Shown: piece after piece, positions 3,052 to 28,323 of the stretch | Position numbering within the stretch: the first letter of the stretch is position 1 | Layout of the letters: every line of letters begins with the position of its first letter | Source of the DNA: a virus | Taxonomy: Duplodnaviria > Caudoviricetes | Direction: 5' to 3' (one strand) | Virus record (IMG/VR): IMGVR_UViG_3300030116_004829 | Location: 1 to 56,124 of that record | Length of the DNA: 56,124 nucleotides | Notes under the pieces: generated by a model | Seen by the model: the letters and a program-made list of their open reading frames with translations, nothing else | What the model was told of the DNA's origin: nothing | Databases searched by the model: none | Program-made: the position numbers and the translations under genes

Positions 3052-3075
3052 TTTTTGCTCCTACAAAATTAAGTT

Positions 3076-3555: not shown

Positions 3556-3557
3556 AA

Positions 3558-4463: not shown

Positions 4464-4478
4464 GGTACGACTCCAAGT

Positions 4479-4877: not shown

Positions 4878-4878
4878 G

Positions 4879-8704: not shown

Positions 8705-8814
8705 TATTTTTTCCTTTTCTTAAGTTTTTTAAAATCAGCACCAGTTATCTTTGTTCTTGGCTTTGCAACTTTTGCCAACTTTTTTTGTTTAGGTGAGTAT
8801 TTGCTAAATGGCAT
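8704..8814 (-). CDS. Small basic protein (36 aa)
   Basis: MPFSKYSPKQKKLAKVAKPRTKITGADFKKLKKRKK; AGGAGG RBS; stop overlaps the next ATG; missed by the ORF track. Confidence 0.65.
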   Translation of the reverse strand: MPFSKYSPKQKKLAKVAKPRTKITGADFKKLKKRKK

Positions 8815-8815
8815 A

Positions 8816-9082
8816 TTATCCTCCTAACAATTCATTCATCATATGATGAACATCGTCACCTGAACCAACTTTCATGACTTTTACTTTTACACCATCGCCA
8901 TGCTCTTCTTCCATCATTTCCTCTTCTTCACCTATGCCATATTGAGTTTGATGACACAATAATAAAAAATTTACAAGTTGGTCGTCGGTCATTTCTAAAC
9001 CTTCGTGGTCATGTGCAAAACCCATCTTCTCAACAAAAAGGTCTGCATTTTCTTCCATATTTTCTACATTAATTTCAGCCAT
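8816..9082 (-). CDS. Small acidic protein
   Basis: 88 aa, Glu/Met/His-rich. Confidence 0.6.
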   Translation of the reverse strand: MAEINVENMEENADLFVEKMGFAHDHEGLEMTDDQLVNFLLLCHQTQYGIGEEEEMMEEEHGDGVKVKVMKVGSGDDVHHMMNELLGG

Positions 9083-9087
9083 TTTAT

Positions 9088-9603
9088 TTACCTTTCCATA
9101 GTGTTATAATTTTTAGAAGCTTCCAACATCTCTATTAATTCTTGATCAGGCTCTACAGACATTGGACTTGGGTCTTTGGGATCTCGATCTGGTATTGGTC
9201 TTGGTACTGGATCTCGATCTGGTATTGGTAGGTCTTTGGGCAAAGTGCTTGTTCTATCAATAATACTTTGCAACATAGATCTAATATTAGACGGCATTGT
9301 TTTTGCAACAGACCTATCAGGAACTGAATCTTGATTAACAAACATTAGCTCTTTCTTTTGTTGTTCTAAAAAACTCCAAATGTCCATAAGCTCTCCTGGC
9401 ATAGAACTAGCATCAGGAAATGGATCTGTTAATATTTTTTGAACAGTTTGAATTAAATTTATATCACTGGCATTAATCTGTTCTTGTTCTTCACGAGGAA
9501 CTCTAACATTGCCATATGGATTATCTTTATTTAGACTAGGAAACCTTCCTCTTTCGTTGCCTTGTCTAAGAATTCGATCTATCAATGCAGTTTGATCTTT
9601 CAT
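9088..9603 (-). CDS. Hypothetical protein with PIPDRDP repeat
   Basis: 171 aa; 21-nt direct repeat at 9179-9199 and 9209-9229. Confidence 0.6.
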   Translation of the reverse strand: MKDQTALIDRILRQGNERGRFPSLNKDNPYGNVRVPREEQEQINASDINLIQTVQKILTDPFPDASSMPGELMDIWSFLEQQKKELMFVNQDSVPDRSVAKTMPSNIRSMLQSIIDRTSTLPKDLPIPDRDPVPRPIPDRDPKDPSPMSVEPDQELIEMLEASKNYNTMER

Positions 9604-11549
9604 TATTCATCCTCGCTGGTTGTTTCATCTTCGTTTACAACTACTTTGGGCATTGTCACTGGATTGTCTTCATCATCATAAACAACATTGCCATCTTCAT
9701 CAAGTTTAGTAAGTTGCATGTTTTCTAAAAATTTAGGATCTACTGGACTACCATCTTCAAAGAAATATAATTTTTCTACTGGATCATAAGTTAAATTTAA
9801 ATCAATAGTTTGTTGTGGTTTATAACCGAATCTTTGAAACATATAATTAGTTGCATATGGTCCAAGACCACCACCTTTAAAAGCTCTGACTGTAAATGGG
9901 TCTGTTTCTTCTGGTGTTTCAGGATCTGCATCTGGATCTGCATCTTCGTCAGGATCTGTACCTTCATCATCACCAGTAATGGATGACACTTGTGAATCCG
10001 AATCAGTATCAAAAGCATCTAATTGAAATGAAGGATCTATTCCTAATCCATCATCAAATTGACCTTGACCTTGTAATTTATCTAAAACAAGATTTAAACC
10101 ATCTACTCCAGTTGCAGTAGGATACATTTGATCTATAGAAATAAAATCACCATCAACTCTTTTACCACCTGCTAATGCTGTAAAAAAATTACCATCTTTA
10201 ATCATTTGCAATGTATCTCTTTGTTGTGACTTTACAAAAGGCTCTAAACCTTGTGATTCTGCTTGATTAAAAAATGGTTCTAAATTAAAACGATTAGATG
10301 GTGGACTTGATAAAACAAAATTTTGATTATCATCAAAACCAAAAGCTGCACCAATATCATATGGCACATTAGTTCCAATAGATTCGAAAAAACTATCAGT
10401 CGCATCAGGTTGACCTGTAATAACTTTCCCTTCAGAATCTAAACTTGTTCCACTGGCAACATAACCTTGAAATGTTTTATCTAAAACTGGTGAAGTGTAA
10501 GTTGTTGGATCGTCTTTTGCAACTAATTGATTTTTATCACCAAGATCTAATTGTGTAGGATCTCTTGTAATATTTGTTGCACCAACAGGAATGCCTTGAC
10601 CAGTTCCACTAACATCTACATATGTTCTGCCATTATAAGTATAAAAAAGATCGTTATCTGATTTATCATTGCTACGTGCTGATATCGCTTGCTGTTCCAA
10701 TGCTTGTGGAGTAAATCTACCACCAAATTCGTACTTTGTAGGATCTATGTCCACTCTAATTGTGTCATCTCCACCACTGGGTTTGGCAATCGCTCCTATT
10801 AGTTGTAATTCATCGCTATCAAAACCTTCTCGTATGTTTCCAGTTAAATCTTTTGGTGGTGCAATACCATATTCAAACTCAAAATCATCATAATCATAAT
10901 CATACATTCTACCAGTTTCAGGATCTTTAAAATATAATCTCTCTACTTGTCCTCCAATTAGATTTTCTAAACTATAATCACTCCCAAAAACTTTTGTAGG
11001 CTCTGGTTGTGGACTGCCATGTGGACCTAAATCTTCAGCAACTGGTTCTGGTACATTCGGATCCATAGCACTTAATTGTGGTTGACTTGCAGAAAACTCA
11101 TCAAATGTCATTCCAACAGAATCTAAATATGCTTTTGTTTCATCTGCATATGGTCCTTCACCATATTTATACATTCCATCAGCAGGACCAAAATAATAAC
11201 CTTTTGGAGCAACTACACCACCCAAACCTTTTTGAAGTTGACTGTAATCAGTGCCAACTGATGTCGGATTAGGATCTTGAAGTTGCACTCCACCACTTTG
11301 TTTATCACCTAATAACAAATTTGTTTCTGTATTATCAGTTAAATTACTTAATGCACCTGTGTTAGTTCCCATGTTCAGTGGATCTTGAAAATCTGAAGAT
11401 CCAATAATAGGATTATTGACAATATCTTGTTGTTGAGTTTCCACATTTTGCATTGCTTGACGAAACTGGTCGGCAGTAATTTCACCTGCTTGCAATTGAT
11501 CAATAAAAGGCACCATCTCATTAGTAAAATGTGCAAAATTATGTGGCAT
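9603..11549 (-). CDS. Large acidic protein, putative internal virion protein
   Basis: 648 aa, Asp/Gly/Pro-rich and low complexity, in the late operon after the portal. Confidence 0.6.
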   Translation of the reverse strand: MPHNFAHFTNEMVPFIDQLQAGEITADQFRQAMQNVETQQQDIVNNPIIGSSDFQDPLNMGTNTGALSNLTDNTETNLLLGDKQSGGVQLQDPNPTSVGTDYSQLQKGLGGVVAPKGYYFGPADGMYKYGEGPYADETKAYLDSVGMTFDEFSASQPQLSAMDPNVPEPVAEDLGPHGSPQPEPTKVFGSDYSLENLIGGQVERLYFKDPETGRMYDYDYDDFEFEYGIAPPKDLTGNIREGFDSDELQLIGAIAKPSGGDDTIRVDIDPTKYEFGGRFTPQALEQQAISARSNDKSDNDLFYTYNGRTYVDVSGTGQGIPVGATNITRDPTQLDLGDKNQLVAKDDPTTYTSPVLDKTFQGYVASGTSLDSEGKVITGQPDATDSFFESIGTNVPYDIGAAFGFDDNQNFVLSSPPSNRFNLEPFFNQAESQGLEPFVKSQQRDTLQMIKDGNFFTALAGGKRVDGDFISIDQMYPTATGVDGLNLVLDKLQGQGQFDDGLGIDPSFQLDAFDTDSDSQVSSITGDDEGTDPDEDADPDADPETPEETDPFTVRAFKGGGLGPYATNYMFQRFGYKPQQTIDLNLTYDPVEKLYFFEDGSPVDPKFLENMQLTKLDEDGNVVYDDEDNPVTMPKVVVNEDETTSEDE

Positions 11550-11752
11550 TATCTTCTCCCTGTTTGTTGAAGAAATGCAAGTAAATTACCTAAAGCACCA
11601 AAGTTTCTATCTTTAGCTTGCTTGTCTTGCATCATTTTTTGCATCACCATCTGTTGCATTCTAGGATCTGCTCCTTGTTGCATAGGTGGTTGCATACCTC
11701 CAAATTGACTTGGATCAACTGGATTTAAAGCTAATACATCACTTATTCGCAT
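11549..11752 (-). CDS. Small Gln/Met-rich protein
   Basis: 67 aa overlapping the portal stop codon. Confidence 0.55.
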   Translation of the reverse strand: MRISDVLALNPVDPSQFGGMQPPMQQGADPRMQQMVMQKMMQDKQAKDRNFGALGNLLAFLQQTGRR

Positions 11753-14147
11753 TTTTCATAGCTTCCATTTGTATCTTTGCTGCTGTCTTTTCTCTTTCTA
11801 ATTTTAGGTCAGCTTCTAACTTTGCAATTTTAGCTTGAAGATCTGCTTGTGCTTTGGCAGCATCGATTTGCATATCTTGTCTTGCTTCAAGTTGCTTAAT
11901 CTTGATATCTGATGCAGCTTTTGCTTGGTCTGCTTGTATTTCAGATTGTGTTCTGGCTTTAAGTGCTTGAGCTTCGAGTTGTGCAAGTTGTTGGGCATAT
12001 TGTAAAGGATTTTGTTGCTGTTGTCTTTGCTGGGCATTCCTAAATGCTTCAATTTGTTGCATTTGAGGTGCTTGTCGGACAACTTGTGCTGCTCTCTGGC
12101 TTATCAATCTATCTAAATCAGGACTGATATCTTTGCCTTCATATTTAGGATCTTTGAAATCTGGTACATCAGGCATTGGTATTTTAATGCTTGCTTCCAT
12201 TCTATTTCTATATAATAAGGCAATATGCTCTGCTATGTGAGCAACAATTAGTGGTTGCGATCTTTTTAATGCTGGATTTGCAGCTAACGATGGATCTTGT
12301 AAAAATTGCATGTGAACAGCAATATGAGATTCATGATCTTGTTCGACAAATGCTTTTATTGGCTTGCCATATAACACTGACATATTTTCATCTATCGGAT
12401 CCATTCTTTTAGCTTCTTGAGGCTCTTTTAGAATCTCTTCTATGTTTGGAATCCTTATGGCTTCATACATACGTTTATATGCAGCATGCAAATCATGCAA
12501 TTGTGGAGCTGATTGTGCCATTTGTAAAATGGCTTGAGCTTGAGCAATACGTTGCGTGCTAGAAAAAATGTTTGGATCGCTGACTGGTATGATGTCAACT
12601 CTGCCATCAAAATCAGCTGCGAAGATTTCAGAACTTGCTCCTGCTAAAGCAAATTGAAAAGATTCAGTTAAATTTTCAGCATACAACTTAGCAAGTAATT
12701 TAAACTCTTGACCTTGTGAATAATGTAATCTTTTATGAATTGCAGAAAACGCTTTTGAGCCTTGTTCAATCAAGGCAACTGTAGAGCCGACTGGTGCATT
12801 CGGATTAACGTCACCAACATTTAGGTCAGCAGTATTTGCAAATCTTTTACCTGCTTCAACAATAAATCCTAATAAATTAAACAAAGATCCACTAGGCTCT
12901 TTAAATGGCAAAGGCATAATAGCTTTATTAACATCGTCAACAGTTGCGTCTAAATCAACAAACTCTCCAGGATTGACTTGCATCTCGCCACCAGAGACTC
13001 TTCCTCTTAATTTAAATCCACCTTGCATATTGCTAAATGCAGCAGAGTCTAGCAATGCTCTTAATGAACCAGTTGCAGCTTTGCCTAATCCACCGATTAC
13101 ATGATAAAGACCGAAACCATAAAATCCTAATCCTGGAAGAAACTTATAACTGACAAACCATTCTCTTTTTAATTTCTTTTCATCTTCTTCATTCCAGTTC
13201 CTGCGAATGCTGACAATAGTATCGTTGTCATAATCTATTGTTATAACATAAGGCAATCCAACTTCTGATTCTTCTTCATCAAAGTAATCATAAACATGCA
13301 TTTCTAATAAAGTAATAATATGATCTTCAGATTCATCTAAATCTTGATCAACACCTTCAATCTGTCCTACAGTATTGCCAGAAGGATCTATATCACTGCC
13401 TTGGTCTGAAGTTGGTAAATAATAACCAGATTCAACATATCTTTCATAATCATTTTTCGGCATACGAATGACATGAGTATATCTGATTGATGTATGCAAG
13501 TCTTTGCTCTCTGGCGAAACAACAAAGTCTTCTGCTTTTACAAACTGAGAACATTGTCTATCTAAATTAACATCCCACCAAATCTTTTTAAAAGTATGTC
13601 CAACTAATGGAAGATGAAATAACATTTGATCAAGTTCAGGGAAATATTCTGGCATTTCCTGAGTGATCTGATAATTCATAAAGTCTTTTACTCTGCGAGC
13701 TTGATCCTCTGATTCTTCTGTTGGCTCACCAACAATAACAGTTTTCACTGGTCCACCAGACGGATACAATTCAGCAATAGCTCTAGCATTAAATTGAGTT
13801 GCAGCTTCTGCAATTAAAGGATGAACAACAACACTTAGACCTCTTGTTGCTCTCTCATCTTCACCTTCATCAAGTCCACCATCGGCATCTAAAGTTTCTA
13901 AACCTTTTTTATATTTTTCTTCCCATTCAGATCTAGCTTCTCTGTCAGTTTCATAGGCTTTAATTAATTCTGAAGCTTTTCTATTTAATTCTTTTTCATC
14001 TATTTGTTCAGCTAAATTTTCATCAAAAGAACTTTCAGTTTCTTCAACAATATCAAGTTCTGGGTCGCCTATCAATACATCATCACCTACTTCTTCAACT
14101 TTTAAATCATCTGGTGGTGATCCTTCGGCAAAAGGTATTTCAACCAT
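11739..14147 (-). CDS. Portal protein (P22-like, with C-terminal coiled-coil barrel)
   Basis: 802 aa; HPLIAEAATQF, YKFLPGLGFYG.GL and LLD.A..SN motifs; Gln/Ala coiled-coil tail; follows TerL. Confidence 0.92.
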   Translation of the reverse strand: MVEIPFAEGSPPDDLKVEEVGDDVLIGDPELDIVEETESSFDENLAEQIDEKELNRKASELIKAYETDREARSEWEEKYKKGLETLDADGGLDEGEDERATRGLSVVVHPLIAEAATQFNARAIAELYPSGGPVKTVIVGEPTEESEDQARRVKDFMNYQITQEMPEYFPELDQMLFHLPLVGHTFKKIWWDVNLDRQCSQFVKAEDFVVSPESKDLHTSIRYTHVIRMPKNDYERYVESGYYLPTSDQGSDIDPSGNTVGQIEGVDQDLDESEDHIITLLEMHVYDYFDEEESEVGLPYVITIDYDNDTIVSIRRNWNEEDEKKLKREWFVSYKFLPGLGFYGFGLYHVIGGLGKAATGSLRALLDSAAFSNMQGGFKLRGRVSGGEMQVNPGEFVDLDATVDDVNKAIMPLPFKEPSGSLFNLLGFIVEAGKRFANTADLNVGDVNPNAPVGSTVALIEQGSKAFSAIHKRLHYSQGQEFKLLAKLYAENLTESFQFALAGASSEIFAADFDGRVDIIPVSDPNIFSSTQRIAQAQAILQMAQSAPQLHDLHAAYKRMYEAIRIPNIEEILKEPQEAKRMDPIDENMSVLYGKPIKAFVEQDHESHIAVHMQFLQDPSLAANPALKRSQPLIVAHIAEHIALLYRNRMEASIKIPMPDVPDFKDPKYEGKDISPDLDRLISQRAAQVVRQAPQMQQIEAFRNAQQRQQQQNPLQYAQQLAQLEAQALKARTQSEIQADQAKAASDIKIKQLEARQDMQIDAAKAQADLQAKIAKLEADLKLEREKTAAKIQMEAMKNANK

Positions 14148-15648
14148 ATAATGTCATCCTTGTTTTCGTTTCGTAATTTTCATCTTCTCTATCGTCTTGA
14201 GAATGAGTAACAAACCAACCTTTTCGCAACCTTAACCATGCTTGCGTACATGTATCAACTATATCATCATTATCACCTGCTGGGAATGCTGCACAGATGT
14301 CTATTAAATCTTTACTCCATTTTTTGTTAGATGGAAAGTAAATTCTTCCATCTTCTAGTAAAGCAGACGATGCATGAGCACGAGCTTCCTTATCTCTATC
14401 AGGTAAATATTCAATAACTGGCACACCTGCCATGCGCAAATCTTGCAACAAACTTTGGCCAGAAGCTTTCTTTTCTATCAACACAGCGTCAGGCTCATAG
14501 TCTTCATAAGCGTCTTGTGCGATTCTTCTTAACTCAGGATATGTAACTCTATCATACCACATCTCTAAAACTAAAGCATTTATTTGGCCATCTTTCCTGA
14601 ACACACCCCATGTTGTTCTAGCAGAATAAGAAGTTTTTTCTTTAGTGCTGAATGCTGTATCGTAAGATTGCAATACATATTCTATTTCTGGGAGATGACT
14701 ATTTTCCCATGGCACCCACCATTCTGATTTTAAAATACCACCACCTTTGGGCATTGGTCTTTGTTGCAGCTGACCTGCTGAGGCATATGACCCCAGACTC
14801 TTTTCCAAGTTCTGTAAAGTTTTCTCGTCAATCCTCTCTGGCCACAACAGATCTCCTTCTTTTGTTCTTGGGTCTGTGAAGTACAATTTTGACTTGGTTG
14901 GTGACGGATGCCCGATTTCATATCGAGCAGGTAAGCATAAATGATCCCATTCATCGTTTTCGTTCGCTAATATGTGTCCTGTTAAATCGTTTTCATGAAC
15001 TCTTTGCATTATAATTACAAAAGCACCTGTCTTTGGATCGTTAAGTCTGGTCTGCATCGCTTGATCCCACCATTCAAGAACTCCTTCTCTAACAGTAGAA
15101 GATTCAGCTTCTCTTACATTGTGCGGATCGTCAATAACAATAATGTCTCCACCTTCACCAGTTAATGCACCATCAACAGATGTTGCTATTCTATACCCAG
15201 TTTTATTATTCTCAAAGCGTTGTTTTTGATTTTGGTCAGTTGTCAGCTCAAAAGAATCGCCAAAATATTCTTTATACCATCTGCTGTCAATTAATCTTCT
15301 ACACTTTACAGAGTCACGAATCGATAAAGATCCTGCATAAGATGCAAACAAGAATCGTTTCTCTGGGCATTTAGACCAAGTCCATGCTGGTAAAGCAACA
15401 GCAACAGAAATAGATTTCATATGTCTAGGAGGAATATTAATAATTAATCTTTTAATATCTCCTTCAACGACAGCTTGCAAATGCTCAGCTATTGCATCAA
15501 TGTGCCAGTTGTCATGGAAATCTCTTCCAGGCTCAATCGTCTGCCAACTGTTCTTGATAAACTCCTTGAAGGATCTCTTCATCTTCTCCGATTTGATCTC
15601 CTTCAACGACAGCGTGTTCAAGAACTCTTTCAATTGTGGTGAGGTCAT
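14140..15648 (-). CDS. terL: Terminase large subunit
   Basis: Walker A-like NIPPRHMKS, Walker B IIVIDDPH, nuclease residues SYDTA, IEKKASG and DDIVD. Confidence 0.95.
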   Translation of the reverse strand: MTSPQLKEFLNTLSLKEIKSEKMKRSFKEFIKNSWQTIEPGRDFHDNWHIDAIAEHLQAVVEGDIKRLIINIPPRHMKSISVAVALPAWTWSKCPEKRFLFASYAGSLSIRDSVKCRRLIDSRWYKEYFGDSFELTTDQNQKQRFENNKTGYRIATSVDGALTGEGGDIIVIDDPHNVREAESSTVREGVLEWWDQAMQTRLNDPKTGAFVIIMQRVHENDLTGHILANENDEWDHLCLPARYEIGHPSPTKSKLYFTDPRTKEGDLLWPERIDEKTLQNLEKSLGSYASAGQLQQRPMPKGGGILKSEWWVPWENSHLPEIEYVLQSYDTAFSTKEKTSYSARTTWGVFRKDGQINALVLEMWYDRVTYPELRRIAQDAYEDYEPDAVLIEKKASGQSLLQDLRMAGVPVIEYLPDRDKEARAHASSALLEDGRIYFPSNKKWSKDLIDICAAFPAGDNDDIVDTCTQAWLRLRKGWFVTHSQDDREDENYETKTRMTLYG

Positions 15649-16111
15649 TATCTGTCAATCTACTTATGTCTAAAACTTTTCTTTCTTCTATTTGTGCTTT
15701 TACTTCAACTGCTTTTAAATCAGGAACACATTTGCCTAATAAAGTTTTTGCAGCCATAACTCTGAGCTCAGGGTCTGCTCCTATCTTACCAATGTTTTGA
15801 ACTGTACCATCATCACTTTGCGAATAAACAGGAAACATTTCTTTGCCATGCATAACAGATGCAAGAAATCCTACAGGATCTGCTTGTCCCATAATCCAGT
15901 TGATTGTTGCAGGATGATTCCACTTTTGATATCTTTTTTGTCTTGGTTGTGCAACCTTTTGATTCTTTAAAGCTTCAACAGATTTAAACCTGCCATCCCA
16001 CTTTTCTGGCTTAACATTGCGACCATTGTTGATTGGTCTTTGCACTTGAACTTTCTTTCCTTTGTCTGAAACCATTATTTTCCTCTCATAAACCTTGTTT
16101 TCAGTGGTCAA
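15533..16111 (-). CDS. Putative terminase small subunit
   Basis: Directly upstream of and overlapping terL; DP..FL and AAKTLL.K.VPDLKAVE helical motifs; true start may be the internal Met (MVSDK). Confidence 0.65.
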   Translation of the reverse strand: MTTENKVYERKIMVSDKGKKVQVQRPINNGRNVKPEKWDGRFKSVEALKNQKVAQPRQKRYQKWNHPATINWIMGQADPVGFLASVMHGKEMFPVYSQSDDGTVQNIGKIGADPELRVMAAKTLLGKCVPDLKAVEVKAQIEERKVLDISRLTDNDLTTIERVLEHAVVEGDQIGEDEEILQGVYQEQLADD

Positions 16112-16137
16112 CTGTAAATTAACTATAATCTATTTTT

Positions 16138-16170
16138 AAAAAAAATAAACCCTCATTTTTATCTGAGGGT
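16138..16170 (-). terminator. Rho-independent terminator
   Basis: ACCCTCA/TGAGGGT stem followed by a long T-run on the minus strand. Confidence 0.8.
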
Positions 16171-16280
16171 CTAAGTTATTTAGCAAGTCATGGAGAAAAC
16201 TTACTACCAGTGAGCATTTGAAAGGGAGGAACACAGCTATGTTGCTCATTCCATAGCTCTGGATTCCAAGAATCACAACC
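16138..16280 (-). ncRNA. Candidate structured small RNA (~140 nt)
   Basis: ORF-free, relatively GC-rich island with several hairpins, between a TTTACT-N16-TAATAT promoter and a terminator. Confidence 0.55.
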
Positions 16281-16282
16281 TA

Positions 16283-16310
16283 ATATTAAATTAATTATTA
16301 CAAAAGTAAA
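16283..16310 (-). promoter_or_regulatory. Sigma70-like promoter for the candidate sRNA
   Basis: -35 TTTACT (16310-16305), 16-nt spacer, -10 TAATAT; same -35 as six other promoters here. Confidence 0.5.
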
Positions 16311-16357
16311 CATTAAACTTAAAAAAGATACAAAAATAAATTTAAATAAAAACTCAA

Positions 16358-16552
16358 TCATTTTTCTTTATCAATCAATGTATTTAATTTTGAATACCAT
16401 CTTTGCCAATCACATATGTCAGTGTACATATTATCTTTCAGACCATTAAGATATTCTAATTTAGTTTTGTCTCCAAGAATAAATTTTAATTTTTTAGGAT
16501 CGCTTTCTTGAAAACCTCTTATCAATTTTTTATAAATATCTATATCATGCAT
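16358..16552 (-). CDS. Hypothetical early protein
   Basis: 64 aa, overlaps the upstream stop, GAAAGG RBS. Confidence 0.55.
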   Translation of the reverse strand: MHDIDIYKKLIRGFQESDPKKLKFILGDKTKLEYLNGLKDNMYTDICDWQRWYSKLNTLIDKEK

Positions 16553-16742
16553 TTGTAAACCTTTCCAAATCTTTTAGAGCCAAAGTGTATTGACCTCTTT
16601 TGTATTTGTTTCCTGTTATTTTTGTAGCTGCATTAAGAATGTCCTTACCAGACATTCTAGAGTTTTTCATCCCAAGAGACAACAATTTAAGATGTCCCTT
16701 GAGAAAAACTGCTTGAACTTTTGGATCTGATGGATTAATCAT
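16545..16742 (-). CDS. Hypothetical early protein
   Basis: 65 aa; LGMK.SR...ITG..YKRGQY. Confidence 0.65.
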   Translation of the reverse strand: MINPSDPKVQAVFLKGHLKLLSLGMKNSRMSGKDILNAATKITGNKYKRGQYTLALKDLERFTNA

Positions 16743-17026
16743 TTGTTGTAACCAGATAAAGTTATTTTTAAAGTTGTAGAAGATTTAGTGTGAGCTCTCA
16801 TAAACTGAGGAGACAATTTATTTCTAACAGCTTTCATATCTAATCTTTCAGTTGTCACTTCTGAAACAACTGCTTTATGCTCTTCACCTTGATAAACGCC
16901 AACACCTAAATGTTTAAGAGTTGTAACAATACATTTCTCAGCATTGTTAATTTTTTCTTTTTCAGCTCGCAATGCAGCTAGTTCATTGACTAAATCAAAA
17001 ACGATATTATTGCTCATGTTATTCAT
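16739..17026 (-). CDS. Hypothetical early protein (coiled coil plus beta domain)
   Basis: Start reassigned to ATG 17026, which follows an AGAAAGGA RBS; the longer ORF would run through the ribozyme. Confidence 0.7.
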   Translation of the reverse strand: MNNMSNNIVFDLVNELAALRAEKEKINNAEKCIVTTLKHLGVGVYQGEEHKAVVSEVTTERLDMKAVRNKLSPQFMRAHTKSSTTLKITLSGYNK

Positions 17027-17045
17027 AATTAATTCCTTTCTAAAT

Positions 17046-17104
17046 TTGCTATCGCAGACCTTTCGGTTTCGGGTGGGGAGCAACCCCACCACTCATCAGT
17101 ACGA
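17046..17104 (-). ncRNA. Type I hammerhead ribozyme
   Basis: Minus strand UCGUA-CUGAUGA-G(U)GGUGGGG UUGCU CCCCACC C-GAAA-CC GAAA GG-UC/UGCGA-U-AGCAA: full catalytic core, three stems, GUC cleavage triplet, loop II/3' tail pseudoknot. Confidence 0.9.
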
Positions 17105-17105
17105 A

Positions 17106-17456
17106 TTAACAACCATAAGCTTCGCAATAAGCTACTGATCCATAACTTGGCTCATCTTCTTCCCAAAGATACTCGTTAAGCTTTCCACCATTATCAGTAT
17201 GTAATTTCATTTTATCAGCTAAAACACTCATTGTTTGCTCAAGCAAATCTCTAGCTTTAGTTGTATCTCCTTCAGCTTTTCTAATAAAATCTGAAAGTAG
17301 AAAAACTTTATTATGATTCCATCTATAACCTTTAGAATCTTCTGCTTGTACACAATAACCTTCGTGATGTATATCAGAACCACATTCGTCTCTTCCTGCA
17401 AAAAACAACCAAGAGTGTTGTATAAAAAATAATCCTTTTGCTGCTGTTATATTCAT
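17106..17456 (-). CDS. Hypothetical early protein
   Basis: 116 aa with GAGAAAGGA RBS; C-terminal P.YGS.AY. Confidence 0.7.
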   Translation of the reverse strand: MNITAAKGLFFIQHSWLFFAGRDECGSDIHHEGYCVQAEDSKGYRWNHNKVFLLSDFIRKAEGDTTKARDLLEQTMSVLADKMKLHTDNGGKLNEYLWEEDEPSYGSVAYCEAYGC

Positions 17457-17585
17457 TTATATTTCCTTTCTCAAAAATGATTTGCCTTGCTGTCTTACTT
17501 TTTTATTGCCATTCTTTTTTAATGACTTCTCCCACTTTCTAGAAGTAGAGTGGATTCTTCCTCGACCTTTTATTCCTTTTGACAT
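17457..17585 (-). CDS. Small basic early protein (42 aa)
   Basis: MSKGIKGRGRIHSTSRKWEKSLKK...; first gene after the leftward promoter, GAGAAAGGA RBS; missed by the ORF track. Confidence 0.65.
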   Translation of the reverse strand: MSKGIKGRGRIHSTSRKWEKSLKKNGNKKVRQQGKSFLRKEI

Positions 17586-17591
17586 TTTCAC

Positions 17592-17693
17592 TTCCTTTCT
17601 CAACCTTATATATACTCTATCTTATTTTGTTTCAAAAGTAAAGGATTATTTTTGATTTTATTAAAAAAAGATTCCTTTAAAAACAATGACTTA
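17592..17693 (-). promoter_or_regulatory. Leftward early promoter-RBS cassette
   Basis: TAAGTCATTGTTTTTAAA box, -35 TTTACT (17642-17637), 17 nt, -10 TAGAGT, then GAGAAAGGA. Confidence 0.8.
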
Positions 17694-18012: not shown

Positions 18013-18213
18013 ATGTATATAGCTAAAATTGAACAAAAAAACTTAAATGAGAATTTATTACATGAGTTCGCACACTCTCATGGTTGTACTTATAAAATAT
18101 TAAGTAAAAGTAATTATAAATTTTCATCTGATAATTATAATTATCTTGAAGAATTGGTTCAGCAACTTAGCATTGATCCTAAAAAAGTTATAAGAAAGGA
18201 AAACTATGAATAG
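18013..18213 (+). CDS. Hypothetical early protein
   Basis: 66 aa with strong RBS. Confidence 0.65.
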   Translation: MYIAKIEQKNLNENLLHEFAHSHGCTYKILSKSNYKFSSDNYNYLEELVQQLSIDPKKVIRKENYE

Positions 18214-18463
18214 TTATAAAGTATTTACAAAAGAAAATTTGCGCAGAGCAAATAATTTCGCAATTAAAACTAATCGCAATAGAACATTAAATAAAAAATC
18301 TTTTATGAAACGATCTCAAGAAACTATATTCCCGATTGTTTTCGCATTGGTACACAATGATGTAGAAATGAGAGTTAAAGTTTTATTAAATGACAAAGGT
18401 TTATGGGGATGGCTAGATATTCCTTTTAAAACTTATGATGCTTTGCCGATGGTTGAAGTATGA
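18206..18463 (+). CDS. Hypothetical early protein
   Basis: 85 aa with AGAAAGGA RBS; H...E.R...WLDI pattern. Confidence 0.7.
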   Translation: MNSYKVFTKENLRRANNFAIKTNRNRTLNKKSFMKRSQETIFPIVFALVHNDVEMRVKVLLNDKGLWGWLDIPFKTYDALPMVEV

Positions 18464-18551
18464 TGGAATCTAAAAATTCAATCAAAGAACAATTTAAATT
18501 AAAGCCTATACCAAAAGCGAAATATTTTAATGTTCGTAAAAAAACTAGAGC

Positions 18552-18580
18552 TTTACTAACTAAAAAAAATAAATTAAAAT
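18552..18580 (+). promoter_or_regulatory. Promoter of the replication operon
   Basis: TTTACT-N17-TAAAAT followed by GAGAAAGGA. Confidence 0.7.
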
Positions 18581-18608
18581 AATTTTCTAAATTTGAGAAA
18601 GGAATGCG

Positions 18609-18992
18609 ATGGCAAAAGTTTATTTAGTTAATAGACCAAAAGTTAATAAGTTCGGTTGGACACCAGATTTATCTGATGCTTCTCGATATGGTTCTTTAGA
18701 AGTTGTTTTTGAAAATAATGACAAACCACAATTTTTGCCCAGTCCTTCAATTCAAAAAGCTAGGCAAATTATGAAAAACTTTTGTTCAGAGGATTATATC
18801 CTTTGGCCAGGAGGTGGAGACCCAATTGCAGTTATGATTGTATGCATGATTGCTTCTGAGAACTCCCCAATCGTTCGTGTCTTAAGATGGGAGCGAAATA
18901 TAGAAGAAGGTGACAGAGATCGACGTAAAGGTTGGTATATGCCTGTTGCCCTAGAAATGAGAAAGGAAAGTGATGACAATAAATCCACTTGA
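18609..18992 (+). CDS. Conserved hypothetical protein (alpha/beta)
   Basis: DLS.A.RYG...DYIL..GGDP...LRW.R...Y.P pattern. Confidence 0.7.
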   Translation: MAKVYLVNRPKVNKFGWTPDLSDASRYGSLEVVFENNDKPQFLPSPSIQKARQIMKNFCSEDYILWPGGGDPIAVMIVCMIASENSPIVRVLRWERNIEEGDRDRRKGWYMPVALEMRKESDDNKST

Positions 18993-19563
18993 TGATGTTG
19001 CACCTGCATCAAATTCTTTAGGTGCTATTACTGATATGGGTCAAAAGATGTATGATCTACTAAAAGAGATCAAAGAGCTTGAAGACTTGTTGAAGAAAAA
19101 GAAGTGGGATTTCACAAATTTAGCTGAACATGAATTACCTGATTTAATGCAAGAGCTGAACTGTAGAGATTTTACATTATCCAATGGAACTAAATGTGAA
19201 ATAAAAGAAATCCTTTCAGGTTCAATCCCATCTAATGGAGCGATAGAAAAAGCAAAAGGCGATGACAAATTGGATTTGGAGATGAGGCAGAAGCAATGTT
19301 TAGATTGGCTGCGAGATAATAATCATGGCGACCTAATAAAAAGCAATGTGACTGTCCCATTTAGTAAGACAGAAGATAAACAATGTAATGAGTTTGTAAA
19401 TGAGTTGCGTGAAAAAAATATCTTCTACAATCGTGCTGTTGGAGTTCATCATGGTCAGCTTAATGCTCTGCTCAAAGAAAGAGTTGAAGACGGCAAAGAG
19501 ATACCATATGATCTTTTCAAGGTATTCACTGGAAGAAAAGCTATTTTTGTGAAAGGAAGTTAA
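18970..19563 (+). CDS. Conserved replication/recombination-associated protein
   Basis: LPDLM.EL...L.NG, WLR.N.HGDLIK and VH..QL.A motifs; upstream of the SSB-like gene. Confidence 0.7.
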   Translation: MMTINPLDDVAPASNSLGAITDMGQKMYDLLKEIKELEDLLKKKKWDFTNLAEHELPDLMQELNCRDFTLSNGTKCEIKEILSGSIPSNGAIEKAKGDDKLDLEMRQKQCLDWLRDNNHGDLIKSNVTVPFSKTEDKQCNEFVNELREKNIFYNRAVGVHHGQLNALLKERVEDGKEIPYDLFKVFTGRKAIFVKGS

Positions 19564-19564
19564 A

Positions 19565-20353
19565 ATGGCAAGTACACAAGAAAAAACAGAAGTTGTAACT
19601 TTTGACGCTTCTATATTAATAGAAGATGCAGACGCATCTTTAAAAAATATGACACAAGATGATTTACTCATCCCACGTCTTAAAATACTACAAGCACAAT
19701 CTCCAGAAGTAAATAAAGCTGATGGTGGTTATGTTAAAGGTGCTGAAGCTGGACATATTTATGATAATGTTTCTGGCAACATAACGGATGGTTCAAAAGG
19801 TTTAACAGTTGTTCCTGTAAGTTATCGCAAAACATTTATAGAATGGACAGCTGAAAGAAAGCTTGTTGCTGATCATGGTTTAGAGCCAGCCAACATAAGT
19901 CAGTTCGAAGCTAATGAAAAAGGTGCTTTAATAAATAATGAAAATAAAAACACTTTATCTTTGACAGCAGAATATTTCGTTTATGTAATCGAAGATGATG
20001 ATACTTTTAGTCCAGCAATCGTTTCTATGAGCTCATCAGGTTTAAAAAAATCAAAAAGATGGAACTCTATGATTAATAGATTGCAAATCCCTCACCCACA
20101 AGGGAAAGGTACTATAAATCCTGCTATGTTCTGGACAGCCTATAAATTAAAAACAATCCCAGAGCAAAATGATTTTGGTTCTTGGTTTAATTGGGAAATT
20201 GAAATGAAATATGATGCTAAGAGTGGTGGCATATTAAAACAATTATCTAATGGTCAAGATCTATATCTAGAAGCACGTGAATTCAGTAAGAAGGTAAGAA
20301 GTGGTGATGTAAAAGTTGCTCCTGATACTCCTGCTGAAGATGAAGCAATGTAA
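19565..20353 (+). CDS. Putative single-stranded DNA-binding / recombination protein
   Basis: DLLIPRLKILQA.SPEV, K.SKRWN and N..GSWF.W motifs; acidic C-terminal tail. Confidence 0.65.
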   Translation: MASTQEKTEVVTFDASILIEDADASLKNMTQDDLLIPRLKILQAQSPEVNKADGGYVKGAEAGHIYDNVSGNITDGSKGLTVVPVSYRKTFIEWTAERKLVADHGLEPANISQFEANEKGALINNENKNTLSLTAEYFVYVIEDDDTFSPAIVSMSSSGLKKSKRWNSMINRLQIPHPQGKGTINPAMFWTAYKLKTIPEQNDFGSWFNWEIEMKYDAKSGGILKQLSNGQDLYLEAREFSKKVRSGDVKVAPDTPAEDEAM

Positions 20354-20373
20354 TCTGTACAATAACTTGCATT

Positions 20374-20413
20374 GCGAGAGCCATCAGTTTCTGGCCTGTT
20401 TCTGATGGCTCGC
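20374..20413 (+). promoter_or_regulatory. Hairpin between ssb and the primase RBS (attenuator or processing site)
   Basis: GAGCCATCAG/CTGATGGCTC 10-bp perfect stem plus flanking GC pairs, immediately before AGAAAGGA. Confidence 0.55.
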
Positions 20414-20430
20414 TTTAGAAAGGATTTAAT

Positions 20431-21960
20431 ATGGCAGTAAAAAAATTCATGGAGCTTTTTCAAGGATATGAACTTGCACATGGTCAATACAGGGTAAATA
20501 AAAAAGAAGCCGATGGAAAATTATCGGGAAGAGCAGTTACAGTCAGCGAGCCTGTTACAGAAAAAAATTATAAAGAACATCTTAATGGTGGTGAATATAT
20601 TTTAGGAATCATTCCTTTATTAATAGATAACAGTTGCCATTTTGGACTTATTGATGTTGACATTAGAGGTGAAGCAAAGTTAAATGAAACACTGGAAAGT
20701 CTTGAAAAGAAAATTAGAGAACTGCCATTGGTTCTTTGTCGTTCTAAAAGTGGTGGTGCTCATTTGTACATGTTTTGCAATCCTAGCATTCCTGCAATTG
20801 ATATGGTCACTAAATTAAATGAGTTTGCTGCACAACTAGGTTATGGTGGTTCAGAAATATTTCCTAAACAGATATCTAGAGCCAATGATAGAGATCGTGG
20901 AAACTGGATTAATTTATGTTATTGGAATGGCAATGAGACTGAAAGGTACGCAATTCACAAAGGTAAAAAATTAAAACTAGAAGAATTTATTGAATTAGCA
21001 GAAAAGAAAAGAACCAATTATGAGGAACTAGAAAAATTAAATTTAAATTTGGTTGATAATTTTAGCGATGGACCACCTTGTTTACAACATATTATGACAA
21101 TGGGTTTTCCAGAAGGTGGCAGGAATAATTCTTTATTTAATGTCGGTGTATATTTTAGAAAAAAGAATCCAGACGACTGGCAAGAAGATTTAATGAAATT
21201 TAATTATGAACATGTCAGTGAACCTTTACCATCTTCAGAAGTCAATGGTTTGGTCAAAGCAGTGAGTCGCAAAGATTATGCTTATACATGCAAGCAAACA
21301 CCTCTCTGTAATTATTGTGAAAAATCTAAATGCATGAAAAGAAGCTATGGCATCGGTGGTATTGGTGGTGGTTTAGCTTTAGAAGTGGATGCCATTACAA
21401 AGTACGAAACTGAAAATAGACAATCAGTGCGTTGGTATATAGAAATGCAAGGTGAGAGAATAGAAGTGACAACACCTCAATTATTAGATCAGAAACAACT
21501 ACAGAAAATTTGCGTAGAAAAACTTAACAAATGTCCCAGCACTATGCCAGCACCTAAATGGGAGAAAAGAATAAATGAGTTGTTGCAAAGTGTAGAGATA
21601 GTTATAGATCCAGATGATGCTTCTCCACAAGGTCAATTTGAAAAAGTTCTAGACGGATTTTTGACAGGTAAAGTTCAAGCTAGACAAAGAGATGAAATTA
21701 TGAATGGCAAACCATGGCATGATTCAGATGAGGGCAAAGTTTATTTTAGGTCAGAAGATTTATTTATTTATCTAGAAGCAAGAAGATTTCGTTTTCCTAG
21801 CCAACATCAAGTTTGGTCTTGGCTTAGATCTTTAGGTGGTGATAGAAAAACCTTTCGCATTAAAGGAAAACCAGTTAAAGTATGGTCAGTACCAGAACCA
21901 GAATTTTTTGACGAAGAAGATTCTCTTGATATACCTAGTGAAGTAATGGAAGATTTTTAA
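20431..21960 (+). CDS. AEP-superfamily DNA primase with PriCT and Cys cluster
   Basis: IDVD (motif I), RSKSGGAHLY (motif II), GPPCL...EGGRNN (PriCT), C...C..C....C. Confidence 0.85.
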   Translation: MAVKKFMELFQGYELAHGQYRVNKKEADGKLSGRAVTVSEPVTEKNYKEHLNGGEYILGIIPLLIDNSCHFGLIDVDIRGEAKLNETLESLEKKIRELPLVLCRSKSGGAHLYMFCNPSIPAIDMVTKLNEFAAQLGYGGSEIFPKQISRANDRDRGNWINLCYWNGNETERYAIHKGKKLKLEEFIELAEKKRTNYEELEKLNLNLVDNFSDGPPCLQHIMTMGFPEGGRNNSLFNVGVYFRKKNPDDWQEDLMKFNYEHVSEPLPSSEVNGLVKAVSRKDYAYTCKQTPLCNYCEKSKCMKRSYGIGGIGGGLALEVDAITKYETENRQSVRWYIEMQGERIEVTTPQLLDQKQLQKICVEKLNKCPSTMPAPKWEKRINELLQSVEIVIDPDDASPQGQFEKVLDGFLTGKVQARQRDEIMNGKPWHDSDEGKVYFRSEDLFIYLEARRFRFPSQHQVWSWLRSLGGDRKTFRIKGKPVKVWSVPEPEFFDEEDSLDIPSEVMEDF

Positions 21961-22146
21961 ATGACAGGAAAATTAATAGAGCCAATTATTTGTTGCATGT
22001 GTGGAACTAAAATATATAACATCATGGATAGTCATAATCCAGAACCAGCTTTTAAATATCCTGATAGATGCTGCAATGCTTGTAATGAAAAAATTGTAGT
22101 TGAAAGGATTAAAGACATGAAAAATGTAAGAGAGATGTTCGAATGA
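21961..22146 (+). CDS. Small Zn-finger protein
   Basis: CCMC...HNP.P...RCCNACN. Confidence 0.65.
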   Translation: MTGKLIEPIICCMCGTKIYNIMDSHNPEPAFKYPDRCCNACNEKIVVERIKDMKNVREMFE

Positions 22147-22304
22147 AATGTTATGTTTGTAAAGAAAAATTAATTTGGGGTGGCGACCATTCATCAGAAG
22201 AAAATGAGGAATATGATATTGTAACAAATTTGTCTTGTAATAATTGTGGTGCTTTTGTATTGGTTTATCAAAAAGCTAAAAAATTTAATGGCGAATATCA
22301 ATGA
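22143..22304 (+). CDS. Small Zn-finger protein (53 aa)
   Basis: MKCYVC...LIWGGDH...NLSCNNC; ATGA overlap; missed by the ORF track. Confidence 0.65.
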   Translation: MKCYVCKEKLIWGGDHSSEENEEYDIVTNLSCNNCGAFVLVYQKAKKFNGEYQ

Positions 22305-22480
22305 TGATTTGCTCTAAATGTTTTAAAGAAATAATAGAAGGTGAAAACCATTATTGTCATGAGTCATATTATAATTATATAAAAAGAAGACTGAGGGAAG
22401 ATTTAGAAAGGAATAAGTTTGAGACACGTACAGATAATTCTTGGACCACCAGGAACAGGAAAGACAACAACACTTCTTAA
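22301..22480 (+). CDS. Small Cys/His protein (59 aa)
   Basis: MMICSKC...HYCH; ATGA overlap; 3' end overlaps the helicase start. Confidence 0.4.
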   Translation: MMICSKCFKEIIEGENHYCHESYYNYIKRRLREDLERNKFETRTDNSWTTRNRKDNNTS

Positions 22481-23879
22481 TATTGTTGAAAGCAGTTTAA
22501 AAAGAAAAGTACCACCAGAAAGAATTGCTTATCTTGCTTTTACAAGGAAGGCTGCAAACGAAGCTCAGGAGAGAGCTATGGTGCAATTTGGTTTTGATGC
22601 TGATCGTTTTCCTTTTTTCAGAACTTTGCACTCTCTTGCTTTTAAAAGATTAGGATTGCAAAGAGATGAAGTCATGGGTGATATTCATTATCGTAAAATC
22701 GGCAAAGCTTTAGGAATACAATTTAAAGGTATTTATGATGAAGATTTAGGATTACATGTTGGGGATGGTTTAGGAGATAAATGCTCACGAATTGAATCTT
22801 TGGCTAGAGTTGGTCTTCGATCTATTGAACATCAATATAGTATTAGCAACCAATATGATTTAACATTGCATGCAGTAAAACAATATGCTGAAAGTTTATT
22901 AATTTACAAAAAACAAAATGGTCTTTTAGATTTTACAGACATGCTAGAAAAATATATAGAACCATTACCAATAGATGTTTGCATAATTGATGAAGCACAA
23001 GATTTAAGTTCTTTGCAATATCGCATGGCAATAAAAGCATCTTCAGAAGCTTCTGAAATTTATATAGCAGGTGACGATGATCAAGCTATATTTGGTTGGG
23101 CAGGAGCTGATGTAAATAAATTTTTAAATTTGAAAGGTGACAAAAGAATACTTCCACAATCTTTTAGAGTTCCTATGTCAGTTCATAAATTAGCAACTGA
23201 TGTTGTAAAAAGAATAAGGAAAAGATATGTAAAACCATGGCAATCTAGATTAGAAAAAGGTCGAGTGATTTATGTTTCTGAAGAAAATAATATCGACTTT
23301 GGTGGAGAGGGAACTTGGCTTTGTATGGCTCGTAGTAAATATTTATTAAATAGATTTAAAAAAATTGTAAGGCAACAAGGCTATGCGTATAATTACAATG
23401 GTAAAAGTTCTTTAGATAGCGATGAAACTAAAGCCATAGTGTCTTGGGAAAAAATACGCAAAAATGAATCTATATCTATGGTTGATGCTAAAAATTTAAT
23501 AAACTTTTTTGCTTTTAAAGTAAGATTGGAAAAAAGAGATTCATATAATTATGAGCACATTTGTTCAAAAGAATCGTTTAAAGGTTTTGATTGGATGACG
23601 ATGTTAAGAAGAATAGCACCAGACGAGAGAGAATATTTAAGGTCTTGCATGAGGAATGGAGAAAATTTTAAAAGTAAACCAAGAATAACTATTTCAACAA
23701 TCCATCAAAGTAAAGGTGGTGAAGCAGATAATGTTGTATTGGCTACTGATATGGGTAAATTAAGTTGGGACAGTTTAGGAACAGATGAGGAGAATAGAGT
23801 ATGGTATGTTGCATTGACTCGTACAAAAGAAAATTTGTATCTTATAAGACCGAGAGGATTAAAGTTTTTTTCTTTATAA
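22419..23879 (+). CDS. Superfamily 1 (UvrD/Rep-like) helicase
   Basis: GPPGTGKT, AFTRKAA, TLHS, DEAQD, GDDDQAI, STIHQSKGGE and YVALTR. Confidence 0.93.
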   Translation: MRHVQIILGPPGTGKTTTLLNIVESSLKRKVPPERIAYLAFTRKAANEAQERAMVQFGFDADRFPFFRTLHSLAFKRLGLQRDEVMGDIHYRKIGKALGIQFKGIYDEDLGLHVGDGLGDKCSRIESLARVGLRSIEHQYSISNQYDLTLHAVKQYAESLLIYKKQNGLLDFTDMLEKYIEPLPIDVCIIDEAQDLSSLQYRMAIKASSEASEIYIAGDDDQAIFGWAGADVNKFLNLKGDKRILPQSFRVPMSVHKLATDVVKRIRKRYVKPWQSRLEKGRVIYVSEENNIDFGGEGTWLCMARSKYLLNRFKKIVRQQGYAYNYNGKSSLDSDETKAIVSWEKIRKNESISMVDAKNLINFFAFKVRLEKRDSYNYEHICSKESFKGFDWMTMLRRIAPDEREYLRSCMRNGENFKSKPRITISTIHQSKGGEADNVVLATDMGKLSWDSLGTDEENRVWYVALTRTKENLYLIRPRGLKFFSL

Positions 23880-23883
23880 TCAG

Positions 23884-23971
23884 TAAGTCATTGTTTTTAA
23901 AGAGAAAGAAAATACTTTACTTTTTTATAAAAAAGAGATAGAATAATTTTATTGTTTTATTTGAGAAAGGA
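23884..23971 (+). promoter_or_regulatory. Promoter-RBS cassette
   Basis: TAAGTCATTGTTTTTAAA box, TTTACT(23916)-N17-TAGAAT, GAGAAAGGA. Confidence 0.8.
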
Positions 23972-23979
23972 AATTTAAT

Positions 23980-24609
23980 ATGAATAAAGTTTTTACAATT
24001 GATTTAAAAAGTCTTAATGTTAATGCTTATGTTAGCAGATATGTTGCTAAACAACATGGTAACGGCATGGCAGTATTTGATAATGCCGATGAGCTTTTAG
24101 AAAATCCTAATATGACAACTAATAAAGTTTTAGATGTTTTCAACAAAGTATCTCCTAAGCAAGTTAAAAGATTTGCTGATAGAAAAACTGGTGTTAAAAG
24201 ATTATTTAGTCTTATAAGTGAAACACCACTTACAAAAACTAATTGGGATTCAGGTGAATACAATCAAAAAGTTTTAGCTCAAATGGATGAAGCTAAAAAG
24301 AAATCAGATCAAGTTTTCAAAAAAGCTTGGGACGAGATGGAACTATACAAAGAAAAAGTTCCTACATCTGGACCGAAAGTTTCTAAACCACGAGGTCAGT
24401 TTGCTAATAAAAAGATCCGTTGTTTAGTAGATTGGAATCCTAGAAAAGAAGGCACTCGTGCTTGGAATAACTTTCAATTGTTTTTAGGTCACGGAACAAT
24501 TTCTTATGAAGAGTTTGTAAAGCTCGCAGCTGATCATGGTAGCAATCCTGGTGGTTGTAGAGAAGATCTTGCACACGACTTGAAAAAAGGCAGAGTTGAA
24601 ATTGTCTAA
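23980..24609 (+). CDS. Hypothetical protein (basic; possible nucleic-acid binding)
   Basis: 209 aa; VKRFADRK and C-terminal NPRK.GT...DL.HD..KG. Confidence 0.7.
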   Translation: MNKVFTIDLKSLNVNAYVSRYVAKQHGNGMAVFDNADELLENPNMTTNKVLDVFNKVSPKQVKRFADRKTGVKRLFSLISETPLTKTNWDSGEYNQKVLAQMDEAKKKSDQVFKKAWDEMELYKEKVPTSGPKVSKPRGQFANKKIRCLVDWNPRKEGTRAWNNFQLFLGHGTISYEEFVKLAADHGSNPGGCREDLAHDLKKGRVEIV

Positions 24610-25039
24610 TCGAACTGTAATCCTATGTGATCTTGATGGCACTCTCTCAGACTATTCTGAGAGAGTTCATCTTTATAAAGAAAAAGATTATAAGTCTTTT
24701 AATGAAGCAGGCATAAACGATAAGCCTATTGAAAAAGTTTGCGAGATAATTAGAAATTTACATTCTGATGCTGTTGAAGTTATTGTGATGACAGCTAGAG
24801 ATGAGAGTTGTCGTCGTGATACAGCACTTTGGTTATACAAAAATAAAATACCTTTTGATCAATTGCTAATGAGACCAGAAGGTGATTTTTCTTCAGACCA
24901 AGATTGTAAATCTAAACTATTTGAAATTCATTTTGACATCGAGGATATTTGGTTTGTATTAGAAGACCGAAACTCTGTTGTTGACATGTGGAGAGAAAAA
25001 GGATTAACTTGTTTGCAAGTATCGAGGAGTGATTTTTAA
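24596..25039 (+). CDS. HAD-family phosphatase (PNKP phosphatase-domain-like)
   Basis: DLDGT motif I, TAR motif II, LLMRP, K, EDR..VVDMWR. Confidence 0.88.
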   Translation: MKLSNRTVILCDLDGTLSDYSERVHLYKEKDYKSFNEAGINDKPIEKVCEIIRNLHSDAVEVIVMTARDESCRRDTALWLYKNKIPFDQLLMRPEGDFSSDQDCKSKLFEIHFDIEDIWFVLEDRNSVVDMWREKGLTCLQVSRSDF

Positions 25040-25971: not shown

Positions 25972-25972
25972 A

Positions 25973-26620: not shown

Positions 26621-26627
26621 GGCAGTA

Positions 26628-26927: not shown

Positions 26928-26950
26928 ATTTTAAATGAGAAAGGAACAAA

Positions 26951-28322: not shown

Positions 28323-28323
28323 A

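Follow-up and report, generated by a model that had tools for sequence, protein, structure and literature searches.

The question raised by this locus is whether an RNA motif lying between two small genes on the minus strand of a tailed-phage genome is a working self-cleaving ribozyme and, if so, what its cleavage would do to the genes on either side. The window, by which we mean the whole stretch of DNA analysed, is an entire IMG/VR virus record, 56,124 bp long and rated as 100% complete, whose large terminase is 77% identical to those of the Roseobacter phages CRP-901 and CRP-902. According to passages of the paper describing them (PMC10149686), phages of the CRP-901 type infect the CHAB-I-5 Roseobacter lineage and form a globally abundant genus. 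Genes on the minus strand occupy positions 1-17603 and about 36415-55880, and those on the plus strand, among them primase, helicases and DNA polymerase, lie at 18013-35998. The answer that we prefer, and to which, from sequence evidence, we assign a probability of about 0.8, is that the motif would be a working hammerhead of type I, held in its active fold by a 5-bp pseudoknot, and would split a polycistronic minus-strand mRNA, uncouple the two halves and provide the downstream genes with a fixed leader.

A preliminary description of this DNA had proposed a type I hammerhead with a GUC cleavage site, and a reading of the minus strand bears this out base for base, every stem, the core, the GAAA and the GUC being found where they had been placed. 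The whole element, with the 3' arm of the pseudoknot, spans 17046-17104. Stem I consists of 5 bp, one of them a U.G pair, formed between its 5' strand UCGUA (17104-17100) and its 3' strand UGCGA (17056-17052), the latter of which would become the 5' end of the downstream product. The catalytic core, for which the class has the conserved C3 U4 G5 A6 N7 G8 A9, reads C3-U4-G5-A6-U7-G8-A9 (CUGAUGA, 17099-17093) and leads into the stem II hairpin (17071-17092), where the outer pair G10.1-C11.1 (G17092-C17071) is followed by a bulged U (U17091), a detail missing from the earlier account, and then by a 7-bp GC-rich helix, GGUGGGG (17090-17084) with CCCCACC (17078-17072), capped by the loop UUGCU (17083-17079); stem II thus totals 8 bp with one bulge. 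The GAAA that follows at 17070-17067 supplies G12-A13-A14 and the first base of the stem III hairpin (the two together covering 17058-17070), in which A17067, C17066 and C17065 pair with G17060, G17059 and U17058, the A15.1-U16.1 pair included, to give 3 bp beneath a GAAA tetraloop (17064-17061). Position H17 is a non-G nucleotide, C17057, and since this is C17 the scissile bond is predicted to lie between 17057 and U17056, a position which we take from the established hammerhead consensus.

One base past stem I, the sequence AGCAA (17050-17046) complements loop II exactly and would pair with it over 5 bp (UUGCU/AGCAA), as had also been claimed at the outset; this helix covaries in relatives. 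Stem I is open and holds both the 5' and the 3' end, stems II and III are closed by loops, and covariation supports the three helices round the core. In its sequence and its predicted fold, the element has all the features of the hammerhead class together with the type I topology.

The covariation was obtained from viral contigs. A first pattern, built on the core and stem III, matched 23 of these, 13 with the architecture seen in the window, and a plain MAFFT alignment (A1) of 14 sequences, 9 of them distinct, had 98.9% of its cells paired, with 7 of the 21 pairs changing on both sides (two in stem I, three in stem II and two in the pseudoknot); its covariation score was reached by 0 of 500 shuffles. 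A covariance model built without the pseudoknot (R1) and a second pattern scan, which yielded 55 loci, together gave 91 matches from 67 sources, 71 of them distinct. The window element itself scores 92.1 bits with R1, its sequence having belonged to the seed of that model. In the alignment of the 71 distinct relatives (A3), which leans towards nested helices because it was fitted to them, 95.6% of cells are paired and 16 of the 21 pairs covary, a score again reached by none of 500 shuffles; controls with the pairing slid along the alignment score at most 0.071 against 0.418 for the true pairing. Because the search patterns themselves fixed the core as well as some of stem III or stem I, those positions are not independent evidence. 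Stem I is 99.7% paired, with four of five pairs covarying. Stem II is 95.6% paired and covaries at seven of its eight pairs. The pseudoknot helix, which is absent from the R1 model, is 89.5% paired, with covariation at three of five pairs, and its loop and tail occur as UAGUU/AACUA (18 members), UUGCU/AGCAA (16), UGGUU/AACCA (7) and UGAUU/AAUCA (2). A loop complement of at least 5 nt is present in the member's own tail in 46 of the 71 sequences, compared with a mean of 8.75 and a maximum of 16 when tails are swapped among members with different loops.

The relatives vary within a constant geometry. CUGA-GA is found in all printed rows of A3, with U, C or A at position 7; stem II, mostly of 6-8 bp, takes forms such as GUGGGGG/CCCCCAC, GGAGAGGG/CCCUCUCC, GGGAGAGG/CCUCUCCC and GAGGAGGG/CCCUCCUC; stem III may be ACA/UGU or a longer helix, with UUUG, AAAU or CUCUG as its loop; and the U.G pair of stem I in the window is C-G in relatives. 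Stem I has 5 bp, the linker is usually 1 nt (the pseudoknot beginning at tail position +0 to +2) and the pseudoknot comprises about 5 bp. Many contigs of the family possess two to four hammerheads within a few kilobases, the window having one, and in L157/L163, L159/L168, L167, L131/L162 and L140 there are three or four each within a few kilobases, a density which suggests that the hammerheads punctuate runs of small genes. The contig of L019, which is also that of L079, contains two, at 12341-12408(-) and 11562-11628(-), about 780 nt apart, bracketing a homologue of the 116-aa gene of the window together with a 74-aa gene; these copies show compensatory differences in all three stems and have the UUGCU/AGCAA pseudoknot in common. 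On another viral contig, L020 (78 kb), a hammerhead with the same stem III (6528-6566(-)) lies about 380 nt from a downstream GOLLD RNA (5724-6146(-), 189.5 bits with Rfam), and the same contig has an array of 13 tRNA genes. The pattern scan of bacterial genomes matched four contigs (two of Acinetobacter, one Enterobacterales MAG and one of Pseudomonas nitroreducens), all with shorter stem II forms and none with the 43-nt form, and these consequently offer no clue to the host of the family to which the window's hammerhead belongs.

The position of the ribozyme relative to its neighbours is as regular as its fold. A Shine-Dalgarno (SD) sequence and a start codon had been reported directly after it, and they are indeed there: the SD AGAAAGGA (17041-17034) precedes the ATG (17026-17024) of a 95-aa ORF (16739-17026), which matches no known family and has no homologue in the relatives compared, and with the predicted cut this ATG implies a leader of 30 nt on the 3' product. 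Among the 74 distinct family instances with more than 200 nt of downstream sequence, 71 have an SD-like motif and a start codon, followed by an ORF of at least 40 codons, no more than 70 nt from the cut, and the median leader of the family is 27 nt. On the other side lies an ORF of 116 aa (17106-17456), likewise unmatched by Pfam or PHROG, whose TAA stop (17108-17106) ends 1 nt before stem I, 49 nt ahead of the predicted cut. Where more than 200 nt are available upstream (70 instances), the stop of an ORF of at least 40 codons falls within -3 to 14 nt of stem I in 56, and exactly 1 nt before it in 31.

Such packing raises the possibility that cleavage is gated by translation of the upstream gene, the ribozyme acting as a conditional switch and not as a constitutive cutter. 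Ribosomes cover a stretch of mRNA well beyond the codon being decoded, and one that terminates at a stop ending a single nucleotide ahead of stem I would sit over both that stem and the CUGAUGA box; the 1-nt spacing is that of the window and of the 31 members just counted, and the wider interval that of the 56. Against this, tight packing is usual in phage genomes and needs no regulatory cause, 14 of the 70 members have no nearby upstream ORF by the criteria set, and competing folds were examined by a single minimum-free-energy fold. We consider gating by translation unlikely.

The wider gene context departs from what had been supposed. The preliminary description placed the ribozyme within an early operon, with three genes downstream. 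What follows it, on the same strand, is a set of four small overlapping ORFs, the 95-aa ORF and three further ones of 65, 64 and 57 aa (16188-16742, no Pfam or PHROG match), ending at a terminator-like hairpin (16173-16146) that folds at -15.8 kcal/mol with a z-score of -4.83 and is followed by a U8 run reaching about 16138. Beyond it, the same arm of the minus strand leads into a TerS-like gene (15533-16111), the large terminase TerL (14140-15648) and the portal (11739-14147), supported by matches to phrog_38 (E 1.5e-96, TerL), phrog_1216 (E 1.6e-38) and Pfam Terminase_6C, the C-terminus of the TerS-like product being 40% identical to the annotated TerS of CRP-902. The replication genes are on the opposite strand, at 18013-35998. 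With four ORFs, then the hairpin and the packaging genes, neither 'three downstream genes' nor 'early operon' is borne out. The block of small genes may constitute a transcription unit of its own.

Several features of this block deserve mention in their own right. Searches of Pfam and PHROGs drew a blank for all small proteins encoded beside the ribozyme, whether from the window or from relatives. The first gene of the block (17457-17585, minus strand) encodes a very basic 42-aa peptide, MSKGIKGRG..., with no family match, which is conserved and likewise comes first in the block in L013, L019 and L026; the last (16188-16361, minus strand) encodes a small hydrophobic 57-aa protein, found directly upstream of the TerS-like gene in 20 of 35 sources (34 relatives and the window). 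The terminal hairpin is located between this last ORF and the TerS-like gene, and nucleotide homology to several relatives resumes at 16177. About 20 nt upstream of the SD of the first small gene, a promoter-like motif, TTGAAA-17 nt-TATATA (17607-17635, minus strand), was noticed by eye; it is absent from the list produced by the promoter scan and serves as a lead only. That scan returned 8 sigma-70-like sites, fewer than the mean of 12.1 in shuffles, and is thus uninformative. Two RNA runs that share words with the region, containing 5% of those sampled, yielded no contig over 16948-17215 and are silent on transcription or cleavage. A megablast search of GenBank phages with 2 kb around the ribozyme found no match.

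How widely, then, is the ribozyme distributed among close relatives? The comparison took in 80 loci with a TerL 83-93% identical, grouped by the length of sequence available upstream of that gene. Of the 66 loci where this exceeds 800 nt, 12 have the ribozyme; beyond 1500 nt the count is 8 of 50, and beyond 2500 nt it is 7 of 34. No hammerhead was found in the cultured phages CRP-901 and CRP-902 (best score 11.9 bits, E 0.44), loose pattern matches in these cultured relatives being judged by eye only. Its presence in only 7 of 34 close relatives, and in neither of the two cultured phages, implies that the ribozyme is dispensable.

Where it occurs, its neighbours differ. With [HH] marking the ribozyme, the gene order is J42-H116-[HH]-x95-K65 in the window, J42-D66-[HH]-H116 in L013 and L026, where the homologue of the 116-aa gene is downstream of the ribozyme, and J42-D64-[HH]-H116-F74-[HH]-L102-K62 in L019, where that homologue stands between two ribozymes; L017 and L022 have D66-[HH]-F70-N108, and in six loci E182-[HH] precedes genes that vary. 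A cassette of about 80 nt, comprising stop codon, ribozyme, SD and start codon, is thus found at different gene junctions in close relatives. By blastn against 16 ribozyme-bearing relatives, positions 17109-17024 of the window form an island of 83-95% identity, with the exception of the second, more diverged copy in L019 (73%), and in most relatives the island is bordered on both sides by unrelated DNA; neighbouring genes that are homologous are 70-82% identical. A separate short similarity concerns the beginning of the 116-aa gene itself, with its SD and opening codons (17435-17471, minus strand), which is 83-84% identical to the stretch that follows the hammerhead in L019, L024 and L031. The unrelated genes after those hammerheads begin alike (MNIT, MDIT, MELT, MNLT), which looks like a shared joint at gene starts. 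In L067, the corresponding junction (4700-4860, alignment A4) has a plain hairpin, GGGGGG-AAUAAAU-CCCCCC, followed by AGCA and an SD, and the two genes flanking it are the same as those that flank a hammerhead in L091 (2112-2300) and L100 (4875-5063). This hairpin might have arisen by decay of a ribozyme, or it might stand in for one functionally, and its existence indicates that structure alone may suffice for part of the function.

These patterns invite a broader proposal, which we advance tentatively: the cassette might be a portable gene-junction module, whose cleavage insulates the downstream accessory genes, making it a natural counterpart of the synthetic insulator RiboJ, and which also acts as a homologous joint for the exchange, insertion and deletion of small genes upstream of the terminase in these marine phages. 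Being much better conserved than the genes around it, the cassette would be suited to the latter role. If true, this proposal would explain why the 116-aa gene lies before the ribozyme in the window, after it in L013 and L026 and between two copies in L019, why homology to relatives reaches from stop codon to start codon and no further, and why unrelated downstream genes have similar first codons.

The same observations can be pushed further, to the point at which catalysis would be weak or irrelevant and the element would serve as a structured RNA whose GC-rich hairpins protect the 3' end of the upstream message, or as a recombination joint in the DNA. The occurrence of the cassette at different junctions, flanked by unrelated DNA, is in keeping with this, as is the plain hairpin with AGCA and SD in L067, where L091 and L100 have the ribozyme. 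Yet the catalytic nucleotides, which would be useless in a mere hairpin, are kept in 71 distinct sequences in which the stems change by compensation, and a joint for recombination would preserve sequence rather than pairing; moreover, the pseudoknot covaries. A purely structural or recombinational element is very unlikely in our estimation.

There remains the relation of the element to chance and to the described hammerhead families. As a structural descriptor of the type I fold, we used CUGANGA, a stem II of at least 4 bp, GAAA, a stem III of at least 3 bp with the A-U pair, H17 and a stem I of at least 4 bp. Applied to both strands, it matches nothing in the whole window but the site at 17046-17104, and it matches in 0 of 300 dinucleotide-preserving shuffles. 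A looser pattern of sequence only picks out one further site in the window, at 42004, which was rejected as a second core since it falls within coding sequence and does not pass the structural descriptor. The Rfam hammerhead models, to which the preliminary description had pointed as a check, do not recognise the element: at gathering scores 0 families matched over the whole window, and the families Hammerhead_1, Hammerhead_3, Hammerhead_II, HH9 and HH10 gave no match at E up to 10 in searches with 361 nt and 81 nt. The best match was to RAGATH-1-hammerhead (RF03152), with 18.3 bits against a gathering score of 56.3 and E 0.28 in the 81-nt search, and the others listed by E-value (DUF2815 RNA, c-di-AMP) were at chance level only. 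Like RAGATH-1, the window RNA has the core, G10.1-C11.1, GAAAC, GUC and stem I, which align with model positions 23-77 of 77; unlike it, the window RNA has no counterpart of the 5' element (model positions 1-22), has a 20-nt stem II hairpin where the model has 7 nt, and has a stem III of 3 bp instead of 9 bp. Membership of RF03152 was accordingly rejected, and the low score, the missing part of the model and the differing stems place the element outside that family: judged by its predicted fold, it is a hammerhead of the pseudoknot kind and not a member of RF03152. Thirteen other viral loci, with hammerheads of the same stem III, likewise had no Rfam hammerhead match at gathering, so that the Rfam models miss this form, and 12 relatives without the hammerhead had 0 Rfam matches in the same region when other ribozyme classes were sought. 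That no Rfam family reaches its gathering score is the one point in favour of the view that the element has no biological role and resembles the hammerhead consensus by accident, a reading whose probability is negligible given the empty shuffles and an element conserved and covarying across 71 distinct viral sequences, and which we reject.

How, then, might the hammerhead act? Its sequence, fold, covariation and conserved layout are shown; that it is transcribed and cut in the cell is inferred, and cleavage may either raise or lower expression of the downstream genes. In the reading that we prefer, a polycistronic minus-strand mRNA would start near 17.6 kb and traverse the small accessory genes that precede those for the terminase. 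The pairing of loop II with the five bases after stem I would lock the active fold, and the RNA would be cut during or after transcription behind C17057, which lies 49 nt beyond the end of the 116-aa gene. Of the two products, the upstream one would then end in the stable hairpins of stems II and III with a 2',3'-cyclic phosphate, and the downstream RNA would have a 5'-OH and a 30-nt unstructured leader, with the SD for the 95-aa gene and for the three genes coupled to it. Self-cleavage that splits the mRNA in this manner, leaving a leader with a 5'-OH, is the standard reading of such an element and in all probability the best one. Cleavage would uncouple the two halves in their stability and their translation, and the downstream genes would gain a fixed, context-independent leader. 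Ends with a 5'-OH are handled differently by the RNases of different bacterial species. The bulged U beside G10.1-C11.1, or the U.G pair of stem I, could slow the reaction.

Among relatives of the CRP-901 type of phages, which infect a Roseobacter lineage dominant in the ocean (PMC10149686), the hammerhead family is abundant. In the paper on CRP-901 (PMC10149686) the word 'ribozyme' occurs 0 times, and a literature search for hammerheads in roseophages or marine viromes turned up no paper. Because the family falls below the Rfam thresholds, routine annotation will miss such hammerheads, and a covariance model derived from A3 would make them detectable. With 71 distinct natural variants of fixed geometry and constant layout, the family also provides clean material for the study of hammerhead function in phages, and junctions at which the same genes enclose a ribozyme (L091, L100) or a hairpin only (L067), as well as the shifting gene boundaries, would be useful in the same way.

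Three known systems invite comparison. In RiboJ, a hammerhead is situated just upstream of the SD, and its cleavage strips the upstream context and leaves a fixed leader; it was engineered from the hammerhead of a plant satellite RNA, with an added hairpin, and is placed after a promoter. The window hammerhead is similarly positioned just upstream of an SD, but it is natural, pseudoknotted and located between two genes. RiboJ and related synthetic ribozyme insulators are the subject of PMC6206723. A second parallel comes from RNA mycoviruses with type I hammerheads in their 5' UTRs, the self-cleavage of which, according to passages of Lopez-Galiano et al. 2026 (PMC13725137), permits translation initiation. 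These hammerheads, like the window element, are of type I and lie directly upstream of a viral ORF; the viruses in question are eukaryotic RNA viruses with cap-independent translation, whereas the window is that of a dsDNA phage with SD-led translation. Since translation in the window phage is led by an SD, any effect of cleavage would be exerted via leader structure or 5'-end-dependent decay.

The closest relationship is with the hammerheads of Perreault et al. 2011 (PMC3088659). As the relevant passages of that paper have it, pseudoknots occur in all three hammerhead types and are required for fast cleavage, pseudoknot mutants being inactive and compensatory mutants active again; hammerheads, some of them clustered, flank genes in phages and prophages, where their proposed role is to cut long phage transcripts into shorter mRNAs; and in a halovirus a hammerhead lies 13 nt upstream of a start codon, with the mapped 5' end of the transcript at the cut site. 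On the same passages (PMC3088659), the window element resembles these hammerheads in its core and three-way junction, in its location between genes of a phage operon with inconstant flanking genes, and in the transcript-cutting role proposed. It differs from them, by comparison with passages of that text, in belonging to a family with a fixed geometry and a tight cassette of stop, ribozyme, SD and start. Hammerheads in phage operons have been known since 2011; the regularities at the level of the family and the pattern of mosaic joints, judged against the portions of PMC3088659 available to us, may be new.
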